Numbered from the stretch's first letter, positions 13,177 to 61,937 are shown. The stretch: 64,000 bases of DNA from Minisyncoccota bacterium (GCA_018061145.1 JAGOUR010000004.1:10625-74624); one strand, 5' to 3'. Program-made: numbers and translations. Notes: a model not told the origin generated them from the letters alone.

Positions 13177-13200
13177 GTCCGTCTCGAACCGGACTTTTTT
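13177..13200 (+). promoter_or_regulatory. Leader hairpin plus T6 immediately downstream of the predicted TSS (attenuator-like)
   Basis: gtccg-tctcgaac-cggac followed by tttttt. Confidence 0.3.
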
Positions 13201-13389
13201 AGTAAAATAATGAGCCGTAGGCGAATATATTTTATTTATGCAAAACAAGGAGCATCGCGACTATGTTTTGCGCTAGTAAAATAAGGAGCTACGTGTGAAC
13301 ATATTTTATTTATTCAAAATAGGGAGCGAAGCGACCATATTTTGTATTTTAGCAAAATTAAATAGAAGGCATAAATATTTTTTCATGCC
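13201..13389 (+). repeat. Tandem repeat of a ~75-bp unit, about 2.5 copies, in the nusA 5' leader
   Basis: Unit 1 is 13201-13275 and unit 2 is 13276-13350 (agtaaaataaKgagc...atattttatttatKcaaaa.a.ggagc..gcgac.at.ttttg), with a partial third unit. Each half-unit carries a GGAG element. Confidence 0.6.
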
Positions 13390-18157: not shown

Positions 18158-18228
18158 CCCCGTTAGAAGCAGGTCGCCCCAAGGTGACCGTAGCACTCGC
18201 ATGCTAGCGAGGGCGGCTTCTAACGGGG
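18158..18228. repeat. 71-bp element with perfect 13-bp terminal inverted repeats ccccgttagaagc / gcttctaacgggg (a member of the CCCGTTAGA family)
   Basis: Both arms read directly from the sequence. GC-rich interior. Confidence 0.6.
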
Positions 18229-18239
18229 TCAATGGGGTA

Positions 18240-18335
18240 AATCCCCCCTCCCATTAGCCAAGGGGAGGATTGAGGAGGGGTGAATAATTTTAGCACCCCC
18301 TCTCAGTCTCCCCCTTAGCAAAGGGGGAGAGGAAA
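18240..18335. repeat. GC-rich double-hairpin element (copy 1), REP/MITE-like
   Basis: Hairpins cctccc-attagccaag-gggagg and ctccccc-ttagcaaa-gggggag. About 85% identical to the copy at 61670..61762. Confidence 0.6.
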
Positions 18336-26914: not shown

Positions 26915-27322
26915 CTAAAGTATTATATTCTCCATCCTTTTTACTCTCGCTTTTCTACTCTCCAGATCCAGATAAACCACCAATATATCAAATTGCCATT
27001 CCCTATTCCCTATCCTGTTATGTATTAGATATGTCTGTATAACTCGAGCCAGTCTCTGGCGCTTCCACATGTGGACATTCTCTTCTGGTCTGAACCACCC
27101 ACTTTTAGTTTCATGTGTAACATAATCCAGATCTGATACAGATTTTGCCTTTACTTCTATAAAATATAGAGAATTCCCCTTTTCAGCTATTATATCTACC
27201 TCCCCCCATTTCTTTGTATAGTTGCGCTCCAATATAATAAAGCCATGTTTCCCGAGAAACATACAGGCTACATCTTCGCCCAATTCCCCTATTTTTTGAG
27301 TATTTGAAGTAAATTTCTTCAT
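26915..27322 (-). CDS. yraN: YraN/UPF0102 family endonuclease (PD-(D/E)xK fold)
   Basis: GELGEDVACMFLGKHGFIILERNYTKKWGEVDIIAEKGNSLYFIEVKAK matches the UPF0102 signature (GE.GE..A...L...G..IL.RN.R...GEIDII..FVEVK). Confidence 0.7.
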   Translation of the reverse strand: MKKFTSNTQKIGELGEDVACMFLGKHGFIILERNYTKKWGEVDIIAEKGNSLYFIEVKAKSVSDLDYVTHETKSGWFRPEENVHMWKRQRLARVIQTYLIHNRIGNREWQFDILVVYLDLESRKARVKRMENIIL

Positions 27323-27440
27323 CCCGTTAGAGATAGGAAGTCCTTAGACTTCCGTATCTTACTTATTAATAGTAAACAATACAAATTTATCTATATACTA
27401 TATATTATAATTAAAATAAAAACGAAACATCTCTAACGGG
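27323..27440. repeat. 118-bp MITE-like leader cassette with CCCGTTAGAGAT / ATCTCTAACGGG terminal inverted repeats, abutting the yraN start codon
   Basis: Termini at 27323-27334 and 27429-27440. Internal hairpin ggaagtc-cttag-gacttcc. Near-identical 40-nt block shared with the element at 35790..35905. Confidence 0.65.
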
Positions 27441-27815
27441 ATTCATATTGTTACATGTGTAACTAATAAAGTGTGCCACGTGAAACGTTTTTCTATTTAT
27501 TAGACATCCAAACCATTATATAATATGTCTTTCACTTAAATAGCTTGATAAATAATGGTATTATAGATATTGTCTTATCTCTTTCGTGTATGACTTTATC
27601 CAATAAAAGCCTGTCTTATAAACAATACACACATAGTTATCCACATAAATGCTTATTTTGTAGGGGATTAACCTGGGGATAAAGGGACAAATCAAGGACG
27701 TCCATTAAAATAGATCTAGTAAATTTTGTGGTCAGGCATAATTTTCTGCTGAAAATTTGCACGACCCTGGCTCACGTCGTCACGTTCCACCTCGCACAAA
27801 ATGTCCGACATTTTG

Positions 27816-28024: not shown

Positions 28025-28095
28025 GCGGGATTAGTTTAGTGGTAGAACTACAGTTTTCCAAACTGTTGGCAGGCGTTCGATTCGCCTATCCCGCA
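28025..28095 (+). tRNA. tRNA-Gly (anticodon UCC), CCA not encoded
   Basis: Acceptor gcgggat/atcccgc, anticodon arm acagt-ttTCCaa-actgt, T-arm aggcg-ttcgatt-cgcct. Confidence 0.85.
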
Positions 28096-28116
28096 CAGTA
28101 TTTATTAACCGTATTT

Positions 28117-28232
28117 GCGGGATAAAGAGCAAACTTCTTTGCTCTTGTAGGCAATCGAAAGACTTTTTGTTGTTTTTCCTCTGGAAAACCAAAAAGTACC
28201 TGACTACGTGGTAGTGATTCGCCTATCCCGCA
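28117..28232 (+). pseudogene. tRNA-Gly-like remnant: a gcgggat 5' acceptor and a ggtag-tgattcgcctatcccgca 3' end separated by a ~90-nt insert with a 9-bp hairpin and no anticodon arm
   Basis: Includes the 28-bp direct repeat (28216-28243) of the tRNA-Gly(UCC) 3' end plus 12 downstream nt. Interior hairpin aagagcaaa-cttc-tttgctctt. Confidence 0.4.
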
Positions 28233-28269
28233 CAGTATTTATTCGTAACAAACGAATATCGAGTTTCAT

Positions 28270-35482: not shown

Positions 35483-35749
35483 ATGCATATGTTAACAACG
35501 AAGAAAAAGGCAAATGTAATCAAGAAAAATCAGCTTCACGACAAGGACACTGGCTCTCCAGAAGTTCAGATCGCTGTTATTACTGAGAAAATTGATGAAC
35601 TTGCATCACATTTAAAGAAGCACAAGAAGGACAATCACTCTCGTCGTGGACTTATACAGATGGTTGCTGACCGTCGCAAGCACCTCAAGTACCTTGAGAA
35701 GACAGACAAGACTCGTCACGAGACAGTAGCTAAAAAATTAAAAGCATAA
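35483..35749 (+). CDS. rpsO: 30S ribosomal protein S15
   Basis: S15 signature (TGSPEVQIAVITEKI..L..HLK.HKKD.HSRRGL..MV..RR.LL.YL). Confidence 0.85.
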   Translation: MHMLTTKKKANVIKKNQLHDKDTGSPEVQIAVITEKIDELASHLKKHKKDNHSRRGLIQMVADRRKHLKYLEKTDKTRHETVAKKLKA

Positions 35750-35752
35750 TTA

Positions 35753-35785
35753 AAACATCTCGACTAACCTCGAGATGTTTTAATT
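35753..35785 (+). terminator. Rho-independent terminator after rpsO
   Basis: catctcga-ctaacc-tcgagatg followed by ttttaattt. Confidence 0.65.
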
Positions 35786-35789
35786 TGGT

Positions 35790-35905
35790 CCCGTTAGAGA
35801 TGCGTTGTTGTAAATTTACGGGATAGTGTAAAATAAGAAGAGGAACATATTATTAACAATAATTAACAAGATACGGAAGTCTTTGGACTTCCTATCTCTA
35901 ACGGG
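35790..35905. repeat. 116-bp MITE-like leader cassette with CCCGTTAGAGAT / ATCTCTAACGGG termini, directly abutting the NYN-gene ATG
   Basis: Termini at 35790-35801 and 35893-35905. Hairpin ggaagtc-tttg-gacttcc. The last 40 nt are almost identical to the yraN leader. Confidence 0.65.
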
Positions 35906-36409
35906 ATGATTATAAAACATAAAGAACAAAGAGTTGGAGTGTTTATCGACACAGCCAATCTATATCACAGCGCAAAAAACCTCTATAAGAGAAAGGTAAA
36001 CTTTGGTGCTGTACTAAAAGACGCAGTAGCAGGACGTAAACTAGTCCGTGCAACAGCATATGTGATAACTAGTGAGGGAGGCGACGAAAAGAGTTTCTTT
36101 GAAGCTCTCACGAAGCTAGGCATAGAGACAAAGACAAAAGACCTCCAAGTATTTTCAGGTGGAGCAAAGAAGGGCGACTGGGATGTAGGTATAGCAGTAG
36201 ATGCTATGAAGATGGCACCCCGCCTCGATGCAGTAGTACTAGTAGCAGGAGATGGGGACTTTATCCCTCTCGTAGAGTACCTCCGAAATACATATGGCAC
36301 ACAAGTAGAAGTGGTTTCATTTGGGAAATCTGCTTCTATGAAACTAAAAGAAGCTGCCGATGACTTCCTAGACTTATCAGTGAGCCCACAAAAATACCTA
36401 ATGAGATAA
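35906..36409 (+). CDS. NYN-domain (LabA-like, PIN-fold) protein
   Basis: VFIDTANLYH...GDWDVGIAVDAM...VLVAGDGDFIPLVEYLR..G..VEVVSF matches the NYN/LabA pattern. Confidence 0.65.
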   Translation: MIIKHKEQRVGVFIDTANLYHSAKNLYKRKVNFGAVLKDAVAGRKLVRATAYVITSEGGDEKSFFEALTKLGIETKTKDLQVFSGGAKKGDWDVGIAVDAMKMAPRLDAVVLVAGDGDFIPLVEYLRNTYGTQVEVVSFGKSASMKLKEAADDFLDLSVSPQKYLMR

Positions 36410-44828: not shown

Positions 44829-46970
44829 ATGCAAAGTAAAGAATACAGTGTGGAGATAGGCGGCAAGCAAGTTGTCGCGGTTTTCAGTGACCTAGCAAAC
44901 CAGGCCAATGGTTCTGTGATGCTAAAGTGCGAGGGGACAGTAGTCATGGCTACCGCCGTGATTAGTCGTGATGGAAAGTCGAATCCGGGATTCTTTAACC
45001 TAACAGTAGAATATTTAGAAAAGTTCTACGCCGCAGGCAAAATCCTCGGATCACAATTTACTCGTCGTGAAGGTCGTCCTAGTGAGCAGGCGATACTAGC
45101 TGCTCGTGTGATCGACCGTACAATCCGTCCATTGTTTGAACATCACATCAAAAATGCAGTCCAGGTAATAGTCACAGTCATAGCAGTAGGGAAAGCAGAC
45201 CCAAAGACTCTGGGTATCAATGCTGCATCTATCGCACTCTGCACATCTGACATACCATGGCACGGACCAATCGGTGCAGTGCATATGTCTATGACAAAGG
45301 ACGCACCGACAATAGCTATCAACAATTATATCCCCCAGGCAGACGAGCCAGTATATACACTAGACCTGATGGTTTGCGGAAAGGACCGCAATATCGCCAT
45401 GATCGAGGCGATGGCATTTGAACTATCTGAAGATGTGATCGGTGAAGGTTTTGATCGTGCAGTAACTGAGATAGAAAAGTGGGAGAATTTCCAAAAGATG
45501 CTCGTAGCAGAATTCGGAAAAACAAAACTACTATTTCCAAAACCAGAAACACCAGCAGAACTCTCAGACCTATTCGCAACTACAATCAAGCCAATATTGG
45601 CGGAAGGTGCCTTTGGACCAAATAGTAAAAAAGTTCTAGATGATGCATGGCACATCTGGAAGGGAATAGTCGACGAAAAATATGCAGATATGCCCGAGAC
45701 AAAGTTCGTAGCAGAAGACTATATCGAAGAATATATAAATAAAATAATTCACGATGCCGCACTCCTAGAATCAAAACGCCCAGACCTAAGAGCGCTCGAT
45801 GAAGTTCGCAGTCTATACGCAAAAGCTGGTGGAATATCAGAGGTACTTCACGGATCTGGAATATTCTACCGTGGAGAGACTCATGTCATGTCAGTGCTGA
45901 CACTCGCAGGACCAGAGAGTATGTTCACAATAGATGGCATAGAATTTTCTGCAAAGAAAAGATTTATGCATCACTACAATTTCCCTCCATACTCAGCCGG
46001 AGAGACTGGCCGTGTAGGTGGTATCAATCGCCGAGAGATGGGTCATGGATTCCTAGCAGAAAAAGCACTCATCCCGGTTCTACCCGTAAAAGAAATTTTC
46101 CCTTACACTATTCGCGTAGTTTCTGAATCTACAGCTTCAAACGGTTCTACTTCACAGGCCAGTATCTGCGCTTCGACAATAGCTATGATGGATGGGGGAG
46201 TGCCGATCAAGACACCTGTAGCAGGAATTTCTATCGGTGTGATGATCGATGAAAATGATAATACAAAGTACGCACTCATCTCTGATATCCAAGGACCAGA
46301 GGATCACTACGGAGACATGGACTTTAAAGTCGGAGGAACTGTGAATGGTATCACTGCTATCCAGCTCGATATCAAAGTAGGAGGTATCCCAGTATTCATC
46401 TTGAAGGATGCGCTAGTACGTGCAAAAACTGCTCGCCTACAAATACTAGAAGCAATCACAAAAGAGATACCTACACACCGCGCAGACATCTCTGAAAATG
46501 CTCCAAAGATTTTGACTGTGAAAATAAACAAGGATCAGATCGGTATGGTCATCGGCCCAGGAGGAAAGAATGTAAATATGATTCGTGAGAAAACTGGTGC
46601 AGAGATTACGATAGAAGAAGACGGTACAGTATTTGTCACAGGTAAAAATGGTGCAGCAGAAAAAGCACAAAAGATCATCGCGGACATGACACATGAATAC
46701 AAGGTAGGCGAAGAGGCGACAGGTACCGTGGTCAAGCTCATGGAATTCGGAGCATTCGTATCTATCGCAGCTGGCACAGAGGGACTAGTACACATCTCAG
46801 AGATCGCACCATTCCGTGTAGAGAAAGTTTCTGATATGCTTAAAGAAGGAGACACAGTTCCAGTGAAGATAATCAAAGTAGACGAAAAAGGAAGACTCAA
46901 TCTTTCTATAAAAGAAGCAAACAAAGATTTCTTCAAACCAAAAGTAGCAACTCCTACAGAAGTAAAATAG
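44829..46970 (+). CDS. pnp: Polyribonucleotide nucleotidyltransferase (PNPase)
   Basis: Two RNase PH domains, KH (IGPGGKNVNMIREKTGAEI), and S1 (GTVVKLMEFGAFVSI...GLVHISEI). Confidence 0.9.
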   Translation: MQSKEYSVEIGGKQVVAVFSDLANQANGSVMLKCEGTVVMATAVISRDGKSNPGFFNLTVEYLEKFYAAGKILGSQFTRREGRPSEQAILAARVIDRTIRPLFEHHIKNAVQVIVTVIAVGKADPKTLGINAASIALCTSDIPWHGPIGAVHMSMTKDAPTIAINNYIPQADEPVYTLDLMVCGKDRNIAMIEAMAFELSEDVIGEGFDRAVTEIEKWENFQKMLVAEFGKTKLLFPKPETPAELSDLFATTIKPILAEGAFGPNSKKVLDDAWHIWKGIVDEKYADMPETKFVAEDYIEEYINKIIHDAALLESKRPDLRALDEVRSLYAKAGGISEVLHGSGIFYRGETHVMSVLTLAGPESMFTIDGIEFSAKKRFMHHYNFPPYSAGETGRVGGINRREMGHGFLAEKALIPVLPVKEIFPYTIRVVSESTASNGSTSQASICASTIAMMDGGVPIKTPVAGISIGVMIDENDNTKYALISDIQGPEDHYGDMDFKVGGTVNGITAIQLDIKVGGIPVFILKDALVRAKTARLQILEAITKEIPTHRADISENAPKILTVKINKDQIGMVIGPGGKNVNMIREKTGAEITIEEDGTVFVTGKNGAAEKAQKIIADMTHEYKVGEEATGTVVKLMEFGAFVSIAAGTEGLVHISEIAPFRVEKVSDMLKEGDTVPVKIIKVDEKGRLNLSIKEANKDFFKPKVATPTEVK

Positions 46971-46994: not shown

Positions 46995-47876
46995 ATGGAC
47001 GAAAAAAATAACCCGACAAAAATACAAAACATCCACACATATTCATCCGATATGGCAGATGCAGTACGCGAACAAGAAGCGACGGTTATTAAAATCGCCC
47101 TAGCAGAAAAAGAAAGAAAGGACAGAGAAAAATATGTAGAAGAAAATAAAAGTAATTTTTCTTCAAATATTTTTTATGTTATAGGGGGAGTTGCACTAGT
47201 AGTATCGTCCATCTGGGCCACATCTTACTTTATACAAAAAGGCAAAGAGGCATCCTCGATCGCAGTTAAAAAAACTACAGTAGATACTCTGATAAAGACA
47301 GACGAGCAGGCGATGCTAGACGTGACAAACATCACAAACAAGCAAGACCTGATAAACGCAATAAAAACAGAAAAATTAAAAGAAATTAAAATTGGAAACA
47401 CAAAATCGATAGTTCTATACACAAGCACAGAAGCTGGGGTAAAAATGCTAACCACTACGGACCTACTGGAAAGACTATCTATAAACATTCCAGGAACTCT
47501 AGCTCGATCACTACATGAGAGTTTCATGCTGGGGGTTTATCAGATAGGAGGAGAGAGAAACTTATTTTTAGTTTTCTCGACAAATGACTACAACTCTTCC
47601 TTTGCAGGGATGTTATCCTGGGAACCTACCATCCTCTCTTCTATGTTTAATCTATTTAGTGTGAATGTTTCATCTAGCCTAGAAGGTGTATTTGAAACAC
47701 CGTGGGGAGATAAAATCATTTTAAACAAAGATTCGAGAGTATTATCTCTGACTGACGGGACAGAATTACTCTCCTACATGTTTATAGACAAAAATAAATT
47801 GATTTTAACTGACAAAGAGGAGACCATAAAAGAAATGATCCAGAGACTAGTTACACAGAACATAAAACCCATATAA
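46995..47876 (+). CDS. Membrane-anchored hypothetical protein
   Basis: Single TM (FYVIGGVALVVSSIWATSYFI) followed by a ~210-aa domain. No known motif. Confidence 0.35.
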   Translation: MDEKNNPTKIQNIHTYSSDMADAVREQEATVIKIALAEKERKDREKYVEENKSNFSSNIFYVIGGVALVVSSIWATSYFIQKGKEASSIAVKKTTVDTLIKTDEQAMLDVTNITNKQDLINAIKTEKLKEIKIGNTKSIVLYTSTEAGVKMLTTTDLLERLSINIPGTLARSLHESFMLGVYQIGGERNLFLVFSTNDYNSSFAGMLSWEPTILSSMFNLFSVNVSSSLEGVFETPWGDKIILNKDSRVLSLTDGTELLSYMFIDKNKLILTDKEETIKEMIQRLVTQNIKPI

Positions 47877-50543: not shown

Positions 50544-51317
50544 TTAAATCTCTTTTTCTAATCTTTTAGCTTCGGACCAGGCAAGCTCGTAGATCTTTTT
50601 CATAGCATCGGCGATCTCGGCGGATTCTATTATAATACCTAGCTTTTCGCGCCAAGAGGCGATCATGACCTTGTTATCATAGATATTTATCTCTGGGTGG
50701 AAACCAAAACTATCAGGAACTATTACAGATTCACGCTTCTCTTCTTTATCAAGACTAGCTCGCTCGCGAGCTTCAGGTGAATCTGGGAAAATGGCACGGA
50801 TAGGAATTCCTTTTTTTGCACGCCTCTTGTAATACTCAGGGAAATAATGGGGAAGTGTCGGCTGGATATCCTCGACACTGGCATAGGCAAGAATTGTCTC
50901 ACTAGAGCTGAGAGTATCTTCATACACCTTCTGCAGTCCATCCTTTCCCTCATAAAATTTTATCTTTGGCCTATTCTCTTTATTGTGAATAGATACCAGC
51001 TCAGGAATGATCTCTTTGGCCTGCTTAAGTGCGCTCGTATATTCAGAGATCTTCTCCTCTAATATCTGCTCTATATTTTCAGGGGATTCCGCTGTGTATT
51101 CCTGCTTTGGTTCTTTGCCCGAGGTACGCACGAGCTTTTTTAATTCTAGAGATGCTAATACATGGTATGCAGTAGGGCGGTTGATACCAGCTTTGCGGGC
51201 AATCTGCGTAACGGTACCTTTTCCCAATTCCAGTAGAGCCAAATAGACTTCAATTTCTTTCTCCGAAAAGCCAATAGAAAGTAGGCTTTTTTTGATATCA
51301 AATGATGTGTTTTCCAT
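50544..51317 (-). CDS. TrmB-family transcriptional regulator
   Basis: N-terminal winged HTH EIEVYLALLELGKGTVTQIARKAGINRPTAYHVL. TrmB-like C-terminal domain. Confidence 0.7.
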   Translation of the reverse strand: MENTSFDIKKSLLSIGFSEKEIEVYLALLELGKGTVTQIARKAGINRPTAYHVLASLELKKLVRTSGKEPKQEYTAESPENIEQILEEKISEYTSALKQAKEIIPELVSIHNKENRPKIKFYEGKDGLQKVYEDTLSSSETILAYASVEDIQPTLPHYFPEYYKRRAKKGIPIRAIFPDSPEARERASLDKEEKRESVIVPDSFGFHPEINIYDNKVMIASWREKLGIIIESAEIADAMKKIYELAWSEAKRLEKEI

Positions 51318-51548
51318 CCCATTAAAAAATTAAAATAATAATGTTTATTTACAGTTTCCCGTAAGTCGATTTTCTAACGGGACAAGTATATTCATTGTAT
51401 TCCAAGCAATATATTTTGTCAATCTATATCAACAAAATTATTTAAATCTATAAAACACCCTGTTTTACAAGATTAAAATTAAAGAAATTAGTTCTGTATG
51501 CTTGACAAATATTGCATGCCTGATATTATATATATAAAATTTTAAAAC

Positions 51549-61061: not shown

Positions 61062-61937
61062 ATGATTCATAAAGCTAAAAAATCACTAGGGCAAAACTTT
61101 CTCAAGAGCAAACCAGCATTGAATATGATGATTAGTGCCGGCGAGGTAGGGAATGCAGATACTATAGTAGAGATCGGTCCGGGTAAAGGCGCTCTCACAG
61201 AGAAACTCCTTGAAAATGCGGGACATGTCATTGCGATTGAAAAAGATCGTGATCTTATAGACTTTCTGAAAGAAAAGTTCGCGACAGAAATAGAAAACGG
61301 GAAATTTGAATTAGTGCAAGGGGATTGTCTGGAGTGGAATCCAAAAGTACTAAAAGGTTCAAACTACAAGCTAATAGCAAATATCCCATATAATATAACC
61401 GGTGCAATACTAAAAAAATTCCTCTCTGAAGAAAATCAGCCAGAGCGCATGGTGCTATTAGTCCAAAAGGAAGTAGCCGAGAGGATAGTGGCCCGAGACG
61501 GCAAGGAGAGCATACTGTCTATCAGTGTAAAAGCATACGGCACACCAAAATACATGATGAAAGTAGAAAAAAGATTCTTTTCTCCGGCACCAAAGGTAGA
61601 TTCTGCTATTATCGCTATAACAGCTATATCAAAAAAGAATTTTGAATCCGAGTCCCCCCTCCCATTACCAAGGGGAGGGCTGGGGAGAGGTGAATTAATT
61701 AAGAACCCCCTCACAGTCTCCCCCTTAGTAAGGGGGAGAGGGACTCAGAATGCAGAATCCCGATTTTTTGAAATACTAAAAGCTGGATTTGCCCACAAGA
61801 GAAAGGTGCTGAAGAAAAACCTTGAAGACTCACTATCAAAAGAAAAAATAGTCGAATTGTTTAAAACCCACAATATAGATGAAAAAGTTAGAGCTGAGGA
61901 TATAAAGCTCCAAAACTGGCTAGATTTCATAAAATAA
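61062..61937 (+). CDS. rsmA: 16S rRNA (adenine1518/1519-N6)-dimethyltransferase KsgA/RsmA, carrying an in-frame ~31-codon insertion derived from a GC-rich repeat element
   Basis: SAM-binding LGQNFL...EIGPGKGALT, NIPYNIT, C-terminal FAHKRKVLKKNL. Residues SPLPLPRGGLGRGELIKNPLTVSPLVRGRGTQ are encoded by repeat copy 2. Confidence 0.85.
   Translation: MIHKAKKSLGQNFLKSKPALNMMISAGEVGNADTIVEIGPGKGALTEKLLENAGHVIAIEKDRDLIDFLKEKFATEIENGKFELVQGDCLEWNPKVLKGSNYKLIANIPYNITGAILKKFLSEENQPERMVLLVQKEVAERIVARDGKESILSISVKAYGTPKYMMKVEKRFFSPAPKVDSAIIAITAISKKNFESESPLPLPRGGLGRGELIKNPLTVSPLVRGRGTQNAESRFFEILKAGFAHKRKVLKKNLEDSLSKEKIVELFKTHNIDEKVRAEDIKLQNWLDFIK
61670..61762. repeat. GC-rich double-hairpin element (copy 2), located inside the ksgA coding sequence
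   Basis: About 85% identical to 18240..18335. Hairpins cctccc-attaccaag-gggagg and ctccccc-ttagtaa-gggggag. Confidence 0.65.

Follow-up and report, generated by a model that had tools for sequence, protein, structure and literature searches.

Between rpsO and a gene for a NYN-domain protein (PF01936), the window (the whole 64,000-nt stretch of DNA analyzed here, from a Paceibacteria genome within the Patescibacteria/CPR) carries a 117-nt cassette that begins 3 nt beyond the stem of the rpsO terminator and directly adjoins the NYN ATG (Table 1). The NYN protein is 100% identical to one in a "Candidatus Pacebacteria" MAG, and L001 (JBAYVZ010000005.1) shows the same arrangement as the window. 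A related cassette of the same subfamily, with intact flanks, precedes a YraN/UPF0102 gene (PF02021) in the opposite orientation; we call it copy 1 and the cassette at NYN copy 2. A first-pass annotation had reported a cassette between the rpsO terminator and the NYN start as one of two copies, and both are real.

Table 1. Cassette copies, their host genes and neighboring features in the window
Feature	Position	Strand	Remarks
rpsO intrinsic terminator hairpin	35748..35785	+	same in empty alleles L201, L002
MITE copy 2, 117 nt, from a T to a G	35789..35905	+	absent in near-identical L201, L002; present in L001, L202-L204
Copy 2 5' terminal inverted repeat TCCCGTTAGAGAT	35789..35801	+	
Copy 2 subterminal hairpin GGAAGTC-TTTG-GACTTCC	35875..35892	+	gene-proximal end only; stem covaries across family members
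Copy 2 3' terminal inverted repeat ATCTCTAACGGGA	35894..35906	+	final A is the A of the NYN start codon
ATGAT, retained downstream copy of the 5-bp target, holds NYN start codon	35906..35910	+	empty alleles read ...aaatatATGATTATAAAA
NYN-domain gene (PF01936), host of copy 2	35906..36409	+	
pnp	44829..46970		
Empty target ATGGA, start of the gene after pnp	46995..46999	+	orthologous start filled in L007, L070
YraN/UPF0102 gene (PF02021), host of copy 1	26915..27322	-	
Downstream target-site duplication copy ATGAA with YraN start codon	27318..27322	-	single ATGAA in empty sites L206-L209
MITE copy 1, 119 nt, subfamily of copy 2, flanks intact	27323..27441	-	
Copy 1 subterminal hairpin	27336..27353	-	
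Upstream target-site duplication copy ATGAA	27442..27446	-	starts uORF MNPVRDVSFLF*
Short family member, 71 nt, arms CCCCGTTAGAAGC / GCTTCTAACGGGG, flanking repeat (N)TTGA	18158..18228	-	fold z -5.6
Short diverged member, 66 nt, arms TCCCGTTAGAAAA / TTTTTTAATGGGA	51317..51382	-	directly before ATG of 257-aa gene 50544-51317

Four occurrences of the 12-mer CCCGTTAGAGAT make up two inverted pairs in the window (27323/27429 and 35790/35894); shuffles give an expected 0.14 matches, and none of 100 attained four. The arms of copy 2 form perfect 13-nt terminal inverted repeats, and both copies carry the hairpin GGAAGTC-N4-GACTTCC. When the two are aligned, the 14-nt 5' end is identical, a 42-nt 3' block (hairpin plus arm) differs only in the hairpin loop, and the center of about 60 nt has diverged. 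Both copies are predicted to fold as closed panhandles with minimum free energies of -38.9 and -41.1 kcal/mol (z-scores -5.4 and -6.3), in which the pairing of the arms takes in the A and U of the start codon.

Two further members in the window are short or degenerate, giving a total of four copies in 64 kb. The one at 18158-18228 does not sit at a start codon and abuts the -35 box TTGACA of the next gene's promoter. Beside it lies the first copy of a GC-rich 83-nt repeat (CCCCCTCCCATTAGCCAAGGGGAGG...; 18244-18326 and 61654-61736, 80% identical), which may be another family of small mobile elements, nested in that intergenic region. Several short variants share the 5' flank ACTTG directly before TCCCG (51383-51387 in the window; also L089, L187 and L195) instead of an ATGNN repeat, which may be a sign of a longer element variant or of a different target. 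Elsewhere in the window, an exact 28-nt direct repeat (28079-28106 and 28216-28243), whose first copy overlaps the 3' end of a tRNA gene (28025-28095), looks like the remnant of an attachment-site duplication, and a tandem pair of 71-nt units with internal palindromes, 77% identical, occupies 13200-13344.

Both full copies can be set against empty sites. At YraN, four relatives (L206-L209) have a single ATGAA, in ...tgtaacaatATGAAgaaattt (also ...aacaatATGAAgaaa), whereas the window site is filled, ...tgtaacaatATGAA(TCCCG...CGGG)ATGAAgaaattt, and reads ATGAA, about 115-119 nt of element, then ATGAAgaaa; with one ATGAA in the relatives and one on either side of the element in the window, the element has inserted and duplicated 5 bp of its target, start codon included. 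At NYN, the site is empty in L201 and L002 (...aatttggTATAATa(t/a)aaatatATGATTATAAAA) and filled in the window, L001 and L202-L204 (...aatttgg, element, ATGATTATAAAA), the NYN proteins of filled and empty strains being 98-99% identical and the flanks identical. The supposition that the cassette is mobile is thus borne out, by polymorphism among near-identical strains at NYN and by a filled and empty pair with a 5-bp duplication at copy 1. Judged by these allele comparisons, the window cassette is a copy of a MITE-like transposon and not a conserved leader: it is short and non-coding, ends in terminal repeats, leaves a duplication when filled and empty sites are compared, is dispersed in several copies and is polymorphic for insertion.

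The same comparison shows copy 2 to be in a derived state. Relative to the empty alleles, 19 bp are missing beside its 5' arm, a deletion that took the native TATAAT -10 box together with the upstream ATGAT. What remains is the downstream copy of the duplication, and with it the start codon of NYN. The first-pass annotation had supposed that insertion of the cassette captured or created this start. It did not, because the ATG is already present in the empty alleles L201 and L002 (ATGATTATAAAA); it is the gene's own, kept as the downstream duplication copy. As the annotation had noted, the NYN ORF has no upstream in-frame start, and homologs of the protein begin with the same MIIKHKEQ.

The distance between rpsO and pnp, which had been read as local rearrangement linked to the cassette, proved unrelated to it: the cassette-free strains L002 and L201 share the window's rpsO-NYN-hexapeptide-epimerase order. 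Across 80 NYN loci retrieved from species-representative genomes, rpsO lies directly upstream of NYN (≤400 nt) in 78 and pnp ≤4 kb downstream in 60, often at 140-300 nt, so the order rpsO-NYN-pnp is ancestral. In most of the 80 loci a -10-like box stands between the rpsO terminator and the ATG, at 6-9 nt from the latter, a leaderless-type arrangement, and only about nine have a related element before NYN, from three different subfamilies. In sum, the mobility proposed at the outset stood, and the creation of a start and the rearrangement fell away; beyond that proposal we find a duplicated start codon, a 19-bp promoter deletion at copy 2, and the element before many unrelated genes.

As a separate observation, rpsO, NYN and pnp seem to form a conserved cluster in the clade (35483-36409 and 44829-46970 in the window; L001-L080), with NYN 80-100% identical across 80 species; clustering and conservation together suggest that the NYN protein may have a role in RNA processing. 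Some database relatives of YraN and NYN carry N-terminal extensions (146 and 174 aa; L210 and L211, protein P0123; P0004). The YraN calls in L210 and L211 begin at an upstream GVG-type codon in the leader region, and gene starts are easily mis-called here.

The interest of the element lies in the properties of its family more than in the partly decayed copy 2. We scanned metagenomes with the two 10-nt arm cores only, without requiring an ATG, and at least 120 stretches matched; the family occurs widely in ultra-small Patescibacteria, on contigs with a GC content of about 0.3-0.7. Its members are about 70-126 nt long (66 nt for the diverged member of the window), non-coding, and bounded by TCCCGTTAGA...TCTAACGGGA, with TCCCGTTAGA and three variable, matched bases making up 13-bp arms. 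Arm positions 1-10 are fixed by the search itself; positions 11-13 vary among elements and subfamilies and are 95-99% Watson-Crick matched within an element (126 elements among the matches listed). Many copies lack the upstream ATG. In one subfamily the 3' arm includes GGAGG, at a distance of 9 nt from the ATG, and most subfamilies have no RBS.

Position is the most constant property. Among the matches listed, about 93% of elements abut a real gene start, TG follows the element on exactly one side in 129 of 139 (all loci), and in 115 of 123 the frame of the 3' ATG runs for 60 codons or more, compared with 2 and 8 for the other frames. Exact 5/5 direct ATGNN repeats flank 77 of 123 elements, and of 88 with a 5' ATG the next two bases match the 3' copy in 77 (shuffle mean 34, maximum 44), again among the matches listed. 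The genes downstream are housekeeping genes of diverse kinds (among them rpoB, several aminoacyl-tRNA synthetases, ribosomal proteins, ftsH, polA, SSB, murC, CTP synthase, S15 and PNPase), with functions that span translation, replication, the cell envelope and metabolism, and the S10 operon has insertions at cistrons within it. In L086 (8830-9215), two family members in tandem are followed by three copies of a ~30-nt internal repeat, away from any start codon, which looks like a nested or rearranged cluster of elements.

No autonomous element or transposase between matching repeats was found in about 1.4 Mb (1.43 Mb) of retrieved loci, which we searched for lone arms and for arm pairs 300-4000 bp apart with matching flanks, nor did the retrieved loci yield a parent insertion sequence with the same ends. 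Three candidate arm pairs were discarded: the first had degenerate arms and flanks that matched by chance as AAAAA, and each of the others proved to be two separate MITEs with host genes between them, rpmE-prfA in L089 and rplB-rplW of the rplD-rplW-rplB operon in L158. The two-arm pattern had no match in viral contigs, and there is thus no sign of carriage by phages.

How the element comes to sit at start codons is partly a matter of target sequence. The 5-bp duplication has the consensus ATGRR, with a purine at positions 4 and 5 in 94% and 97% of intact cases and T and C nearly absent there, among the matches listed; at the same two positions AA, GA and AG together account for 24 of 44 gene starts in the window. 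Rare insertions off start codons are flanked by ATAAA, and together with the ATGRR bias this points to a DNA-level preference for AT(G/A)RR. An A at base 4, which makes the AUGA stop, has no link to the phase of the upstream ORF (uORF) and is therefore better read as target preference. The window contains ATGRR at 33 gene starts, at 48 intergenic positions and at 469 positions in coding sequence, from which the purging of intragenic insertions only predicts about 41% of insertions at starts, compared with the 93% observed among the matches listed; the difference calls either for selection against intergenic insertions too or for targeting that recognizes more than the pentamer. A preference for ATGRR combined with loss of intragenic insertions falls short of the 93% restriction to starts, and the model lacks something.

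A -10-like hexamer lies 5-9 nt upstream of the 5' ATG in 48 of 89 elements, against 4-23 of 89 at shifted controls, and other elements have an SD sequence there (among the matches listed). Targeting of the transcription start site (+1 to +5 of leaderless promoters) was considered as a general rule and set aside: it accounts for the half with a -10 box but not for elements inserted after an SD sequence or at cistrons within operons.

Once the element has inserted, the gene's original initiation signals (a leaderless-type -10 box or an SD) remain with the upstream ATG copy, and the true coding sequence begins at the downstream copy, touching the 3' arm. From the upstream ATG runs a uORF that opens with M-x-P-V-R, encoded by the 5' arm, and varies from there on. 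We rejected a conserved leader peptide, the arm-encoded P-V-R being all that the uORFs have in common. Among the matches listed, the interior is stop-free in the frame of the upstream ATG in 44 of 89 elements versus 14 and 11 in the other frames, and after clustering in 42 of 83 versus 12 and 10, with 11.2 ± 2.8 for shuffled interiors; elements without an upstream ATG show no frame bias. Of the open uORFs, 22 stop at a UAA within the 3' arm that lies 7 nt ahead of the real AUG, 17 stop in an AUGA overlap and 5 fuse in-frame, and the in-frame phase is depleted (14:39:36), both among the matches listed. An upstream-ATG frame that stays open in half of the elements is most simply read as a sign that the family may work by translational coupling.

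We propose that the transcript would fold into a panhandle whose paired arms hide the A and U of the real AUG. A ribosome that starts at the upstream AUG would translate into the element, melt the stem and stop at the UAA in the 3' arm, 7 nt before the AUG, or at the overlapping UGA of AUGA; termination beside the real AUG would leave that start unmasked or allow re-initiation. Such coupling would make an insertion nearly harmless even before an essential gene. Looking for an RNA-specific signature, we counted arm mismatches and found 3 G-U against 9 A-C; with no G-U excess, the complementarity of the arms could be a DNA-level and not an RNA-level property. An SD-like motif (GGAG, GAGG or AGGA at -18 to -5) precedes only 1 of 44 long ORFs in the window, and in 15 of the 44 a -10-like hexamer stands at 5-9 nt from the ATG, as is typical of leaderless mRNAs (for example the rpsO start at 35489, TACTAT-N6-ATG). 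In an organism with almost no SD sequences, none is required at the downstream AUG, and transient opening of the stem, or transcription from weak promoter-like strings inside the element, may suffice; this is the least certain step of the scheme.

The coupling model is not directly applicable to the two full copies in the window. The uORF of copy 1, 11 codons long, terminates some 80 nt short of the real AUG, and in copy 2 both the upstream ATG and the native promoter are missing; NYN would probably be expressed from a weak promoter inside the element or by read-through from rpsO. Taken as a whole, we regard it as highly probable that the element is a MITE with an ATGRR duplication at gene starts whose ends may form a panhandle and couple translation.

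A more ambitious form of this reading, which we would stop short of calling probable, is a start-codon-homing and translationally transparent transposon family, in which a transposase that selects ATGRR starts is combined with ends that form a portable coupling device. The transposase would pick ATGRR gene starts beyond what sequence preference and purifying selection achieve, the 5' arm would provide codons 2-6 of the uORF, the 3' arm would bring the UAA and AUGA stops, and ribosomes recruited by the initiation signal of the host gene itself would pass on to the real start codon. Such an element could spread, in bacterial genomes that are the most streamlined known, to the start codons of genes that are essential, even at cistrons inside ribosomal-protein operons, and its host genes could come under common structural control through a 13-15-bp panhandle.

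The strongest competitor, which we consider unlikely but well worth weighing, is a purely selfish MITE that inserts at ATGRR and whose surviving copies spare expression by chance, with the host gene served by an internal promoter or by ordinary internal initiation. The ATGRR bias is real, the organism is nearly SD-free, and copy 2 has lost the native promoter and the upstream ATG yet stands before the highly conserved NYN. The subfamily with the subterminal hairpin is AT-rich, its uORFs are mostly short or closed, and TAAAAT-like strings recur inside; weak TTGnnn-N16-18-TAAAAT-like strings can be read by eye within elements. A scan of the sense strand of copy 2 for a consensus promoter found none, however, and a selfish element leaves unexplained the open upstream-ATG frame through diverged interiors in half of the family, the depletion of the in-frame phase and the fixed orientation.

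Far less probable is a conserved cis-regulatory 5'-UTR RNA, a riboswitch or protein-binding leader of a regulon comprising NYN and YraN, in which the stem masks the start. Such an RNA would account for the placement of both full window copies before genes of nuclease families, for the strong fold that closes over the AUG and for the covarying subterminal hairpin. It is contradicted by near-identical strains that are polymorphic for the element, by 5-bp flanking repeats that track each gene's own second codon and by host genes that are functionally unrelated and form no coherent set. The interior is moreover unconserved (89 elements fall into 83 clusters, among the matches listed), and Rfam returned only tRNAs and sub-threshold noise for the whole window at the gathering threshold and for both copies at E ≤ 10.

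We are similarly doubtful of translational bypassing, in which the AUGNN copies would be take-off and landing sites joined by the panhandle and the ribosome would slide to the downstream AUG. Identical AUGNN copies do flank a very stable stem that juxtaposes them, much as matched codons surround a folded gap in T4 gene 60 and the mitochondrial byp elements, but the open uORF and the placement of its stops in the 3' arm favor a ribosome that reads through the element, the upstream ATG is lost in many copies, and a nascent-peptide signal is impossible at initiation. Least probable of all is an inverton, a promoter-bearing segment flipped between inverted repeats by a site-specific recombinase to turn the gene on or off: inverted repeats do surround an AT-rich segment directly upstream of genes, with weak -35/-10-like strings that can be read directly from the sequence, but the element is flanked by direct repeats and has empty sites, only about 90 bp lie between the arms, no recombinase gene stands beside the window copies, and among the matches listed the two ends differ, with the gene usually on the side where C and T stand immediately inside the arm (the 3' arm, about 70% of 126 oriented elements; CCT there in 54 elements versus 4 at the 5' arm).

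The MITE with coupling ends that we favor has partial parallels in known systems. In translational coupling by termination-reinitiation, as at junctions of the trp operon or between the coat and replicase genes of RNA phages, where the start is buried in a long-range stem, the stop likewise lies 0-7 nt from the next AUG and an upstream ribosome must open a stem that holds the start; the putative device of the window family differs in being borne on transposon ends and remade at each insertion. Programmed translational bypassing is known from T4 gene 60 and the byp elements of Magnusiomyces mitochondria. There, too, matched codons flank a folded insertion in the translated path, which in our family are made by duplication, and our data differ in favoring translation of the insert. 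PATE elements derived from IS200/IS605 have neither terminal inverted repeats nor a target duplication and insert 3' of a fixed tetra- or pentanucleotide; the window family is not of this kind, with a duplication that follows each gene's variable bases 4-5 and perfect terminal repeats. Nor does it belong to the Correia elements, which have 26-bp repeats, a TA duplication and an IHF site, compared with 13-bp repeats of unrelated sequence and a 5-bp ATGRR duplication here.

Bacterial MITEs in general, such as the Correia element of Neisseria, pneumococcal RUP, enterobacterial ERIC/IRU and MITEAba12 (PMC3184786; PMC6382973), resemble the window family: they too are short and non-coding, occur in multiple copies that end in terminal inverted repeats, duplicate their target site and are polymorphic for presence. 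Unlike in Correia, RUP, ERIC or MITEAba12, the 5-bp ATGRR duplication of the window family includes the host start codon, about 93% of elements among the matches listed sit exactly at gene starts with orientation largely fixed, the arms are complementary over 13 bp despite their variation, and an open uORF runs to a stop in the 3' arm. The REP2 repeats of Neisseria, which have no terminal inverted repeats, and the Borrelia IR place a promoter, an RBS and an ATG directly upstream of genes (PMC3184786); they share with the window family a repeated leader that abuts the initiation codon of many different genes, as the first-pass annotation had pictured, but they carry their own ATG, whereas the window family duplicates that of the host gene. 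Rickettsia palindromic elements (RPE) are palindromic repeats fused in-frame into protein genes (PMC3184786), also a case of a palindromic mobile element tolerated in the translated path of essential genes; unlike RPE, which lie in coding sequence and become part of the protein, the window family is depleted in the in-frame phase and is read as a separate uORF. A further example of stop-start coupling is the overlap of orf121 and tnpA in IS91 (PMC13181058). Our literature search on start-codon MITEs, on MITEs of Patescibacteria/CPR and on the arm sequences found no description of the element, and the family is apparently undescribed: of a known kind, as a MITE, and unusual in its behavior at start codons.

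Patescibacteria have tiny, gene-dense genomes that are thought to leave scant room for mobile DNA. The family described here represents one way for a transposon to persist in such genomes, by landing on a start codon, regenerating it and apparently keeping translation going. These elements make strain-level indels right at essential genes and offer a marker for recent transposition in metagenomes; they also shift predicted gene starts, because some database gene calls run from the upstream ATG. If the coupling is true, the element would be a natural portable module that passes ribosomes from AUG to AUG across a 100-nt hairpin, and one that can be tested in synthetic constructs. It would do so in organisms with leaderless mRNAs and few Shine-Dalgarno sequences, and would bear on how translation is initiated in these uncultivated bacteria.
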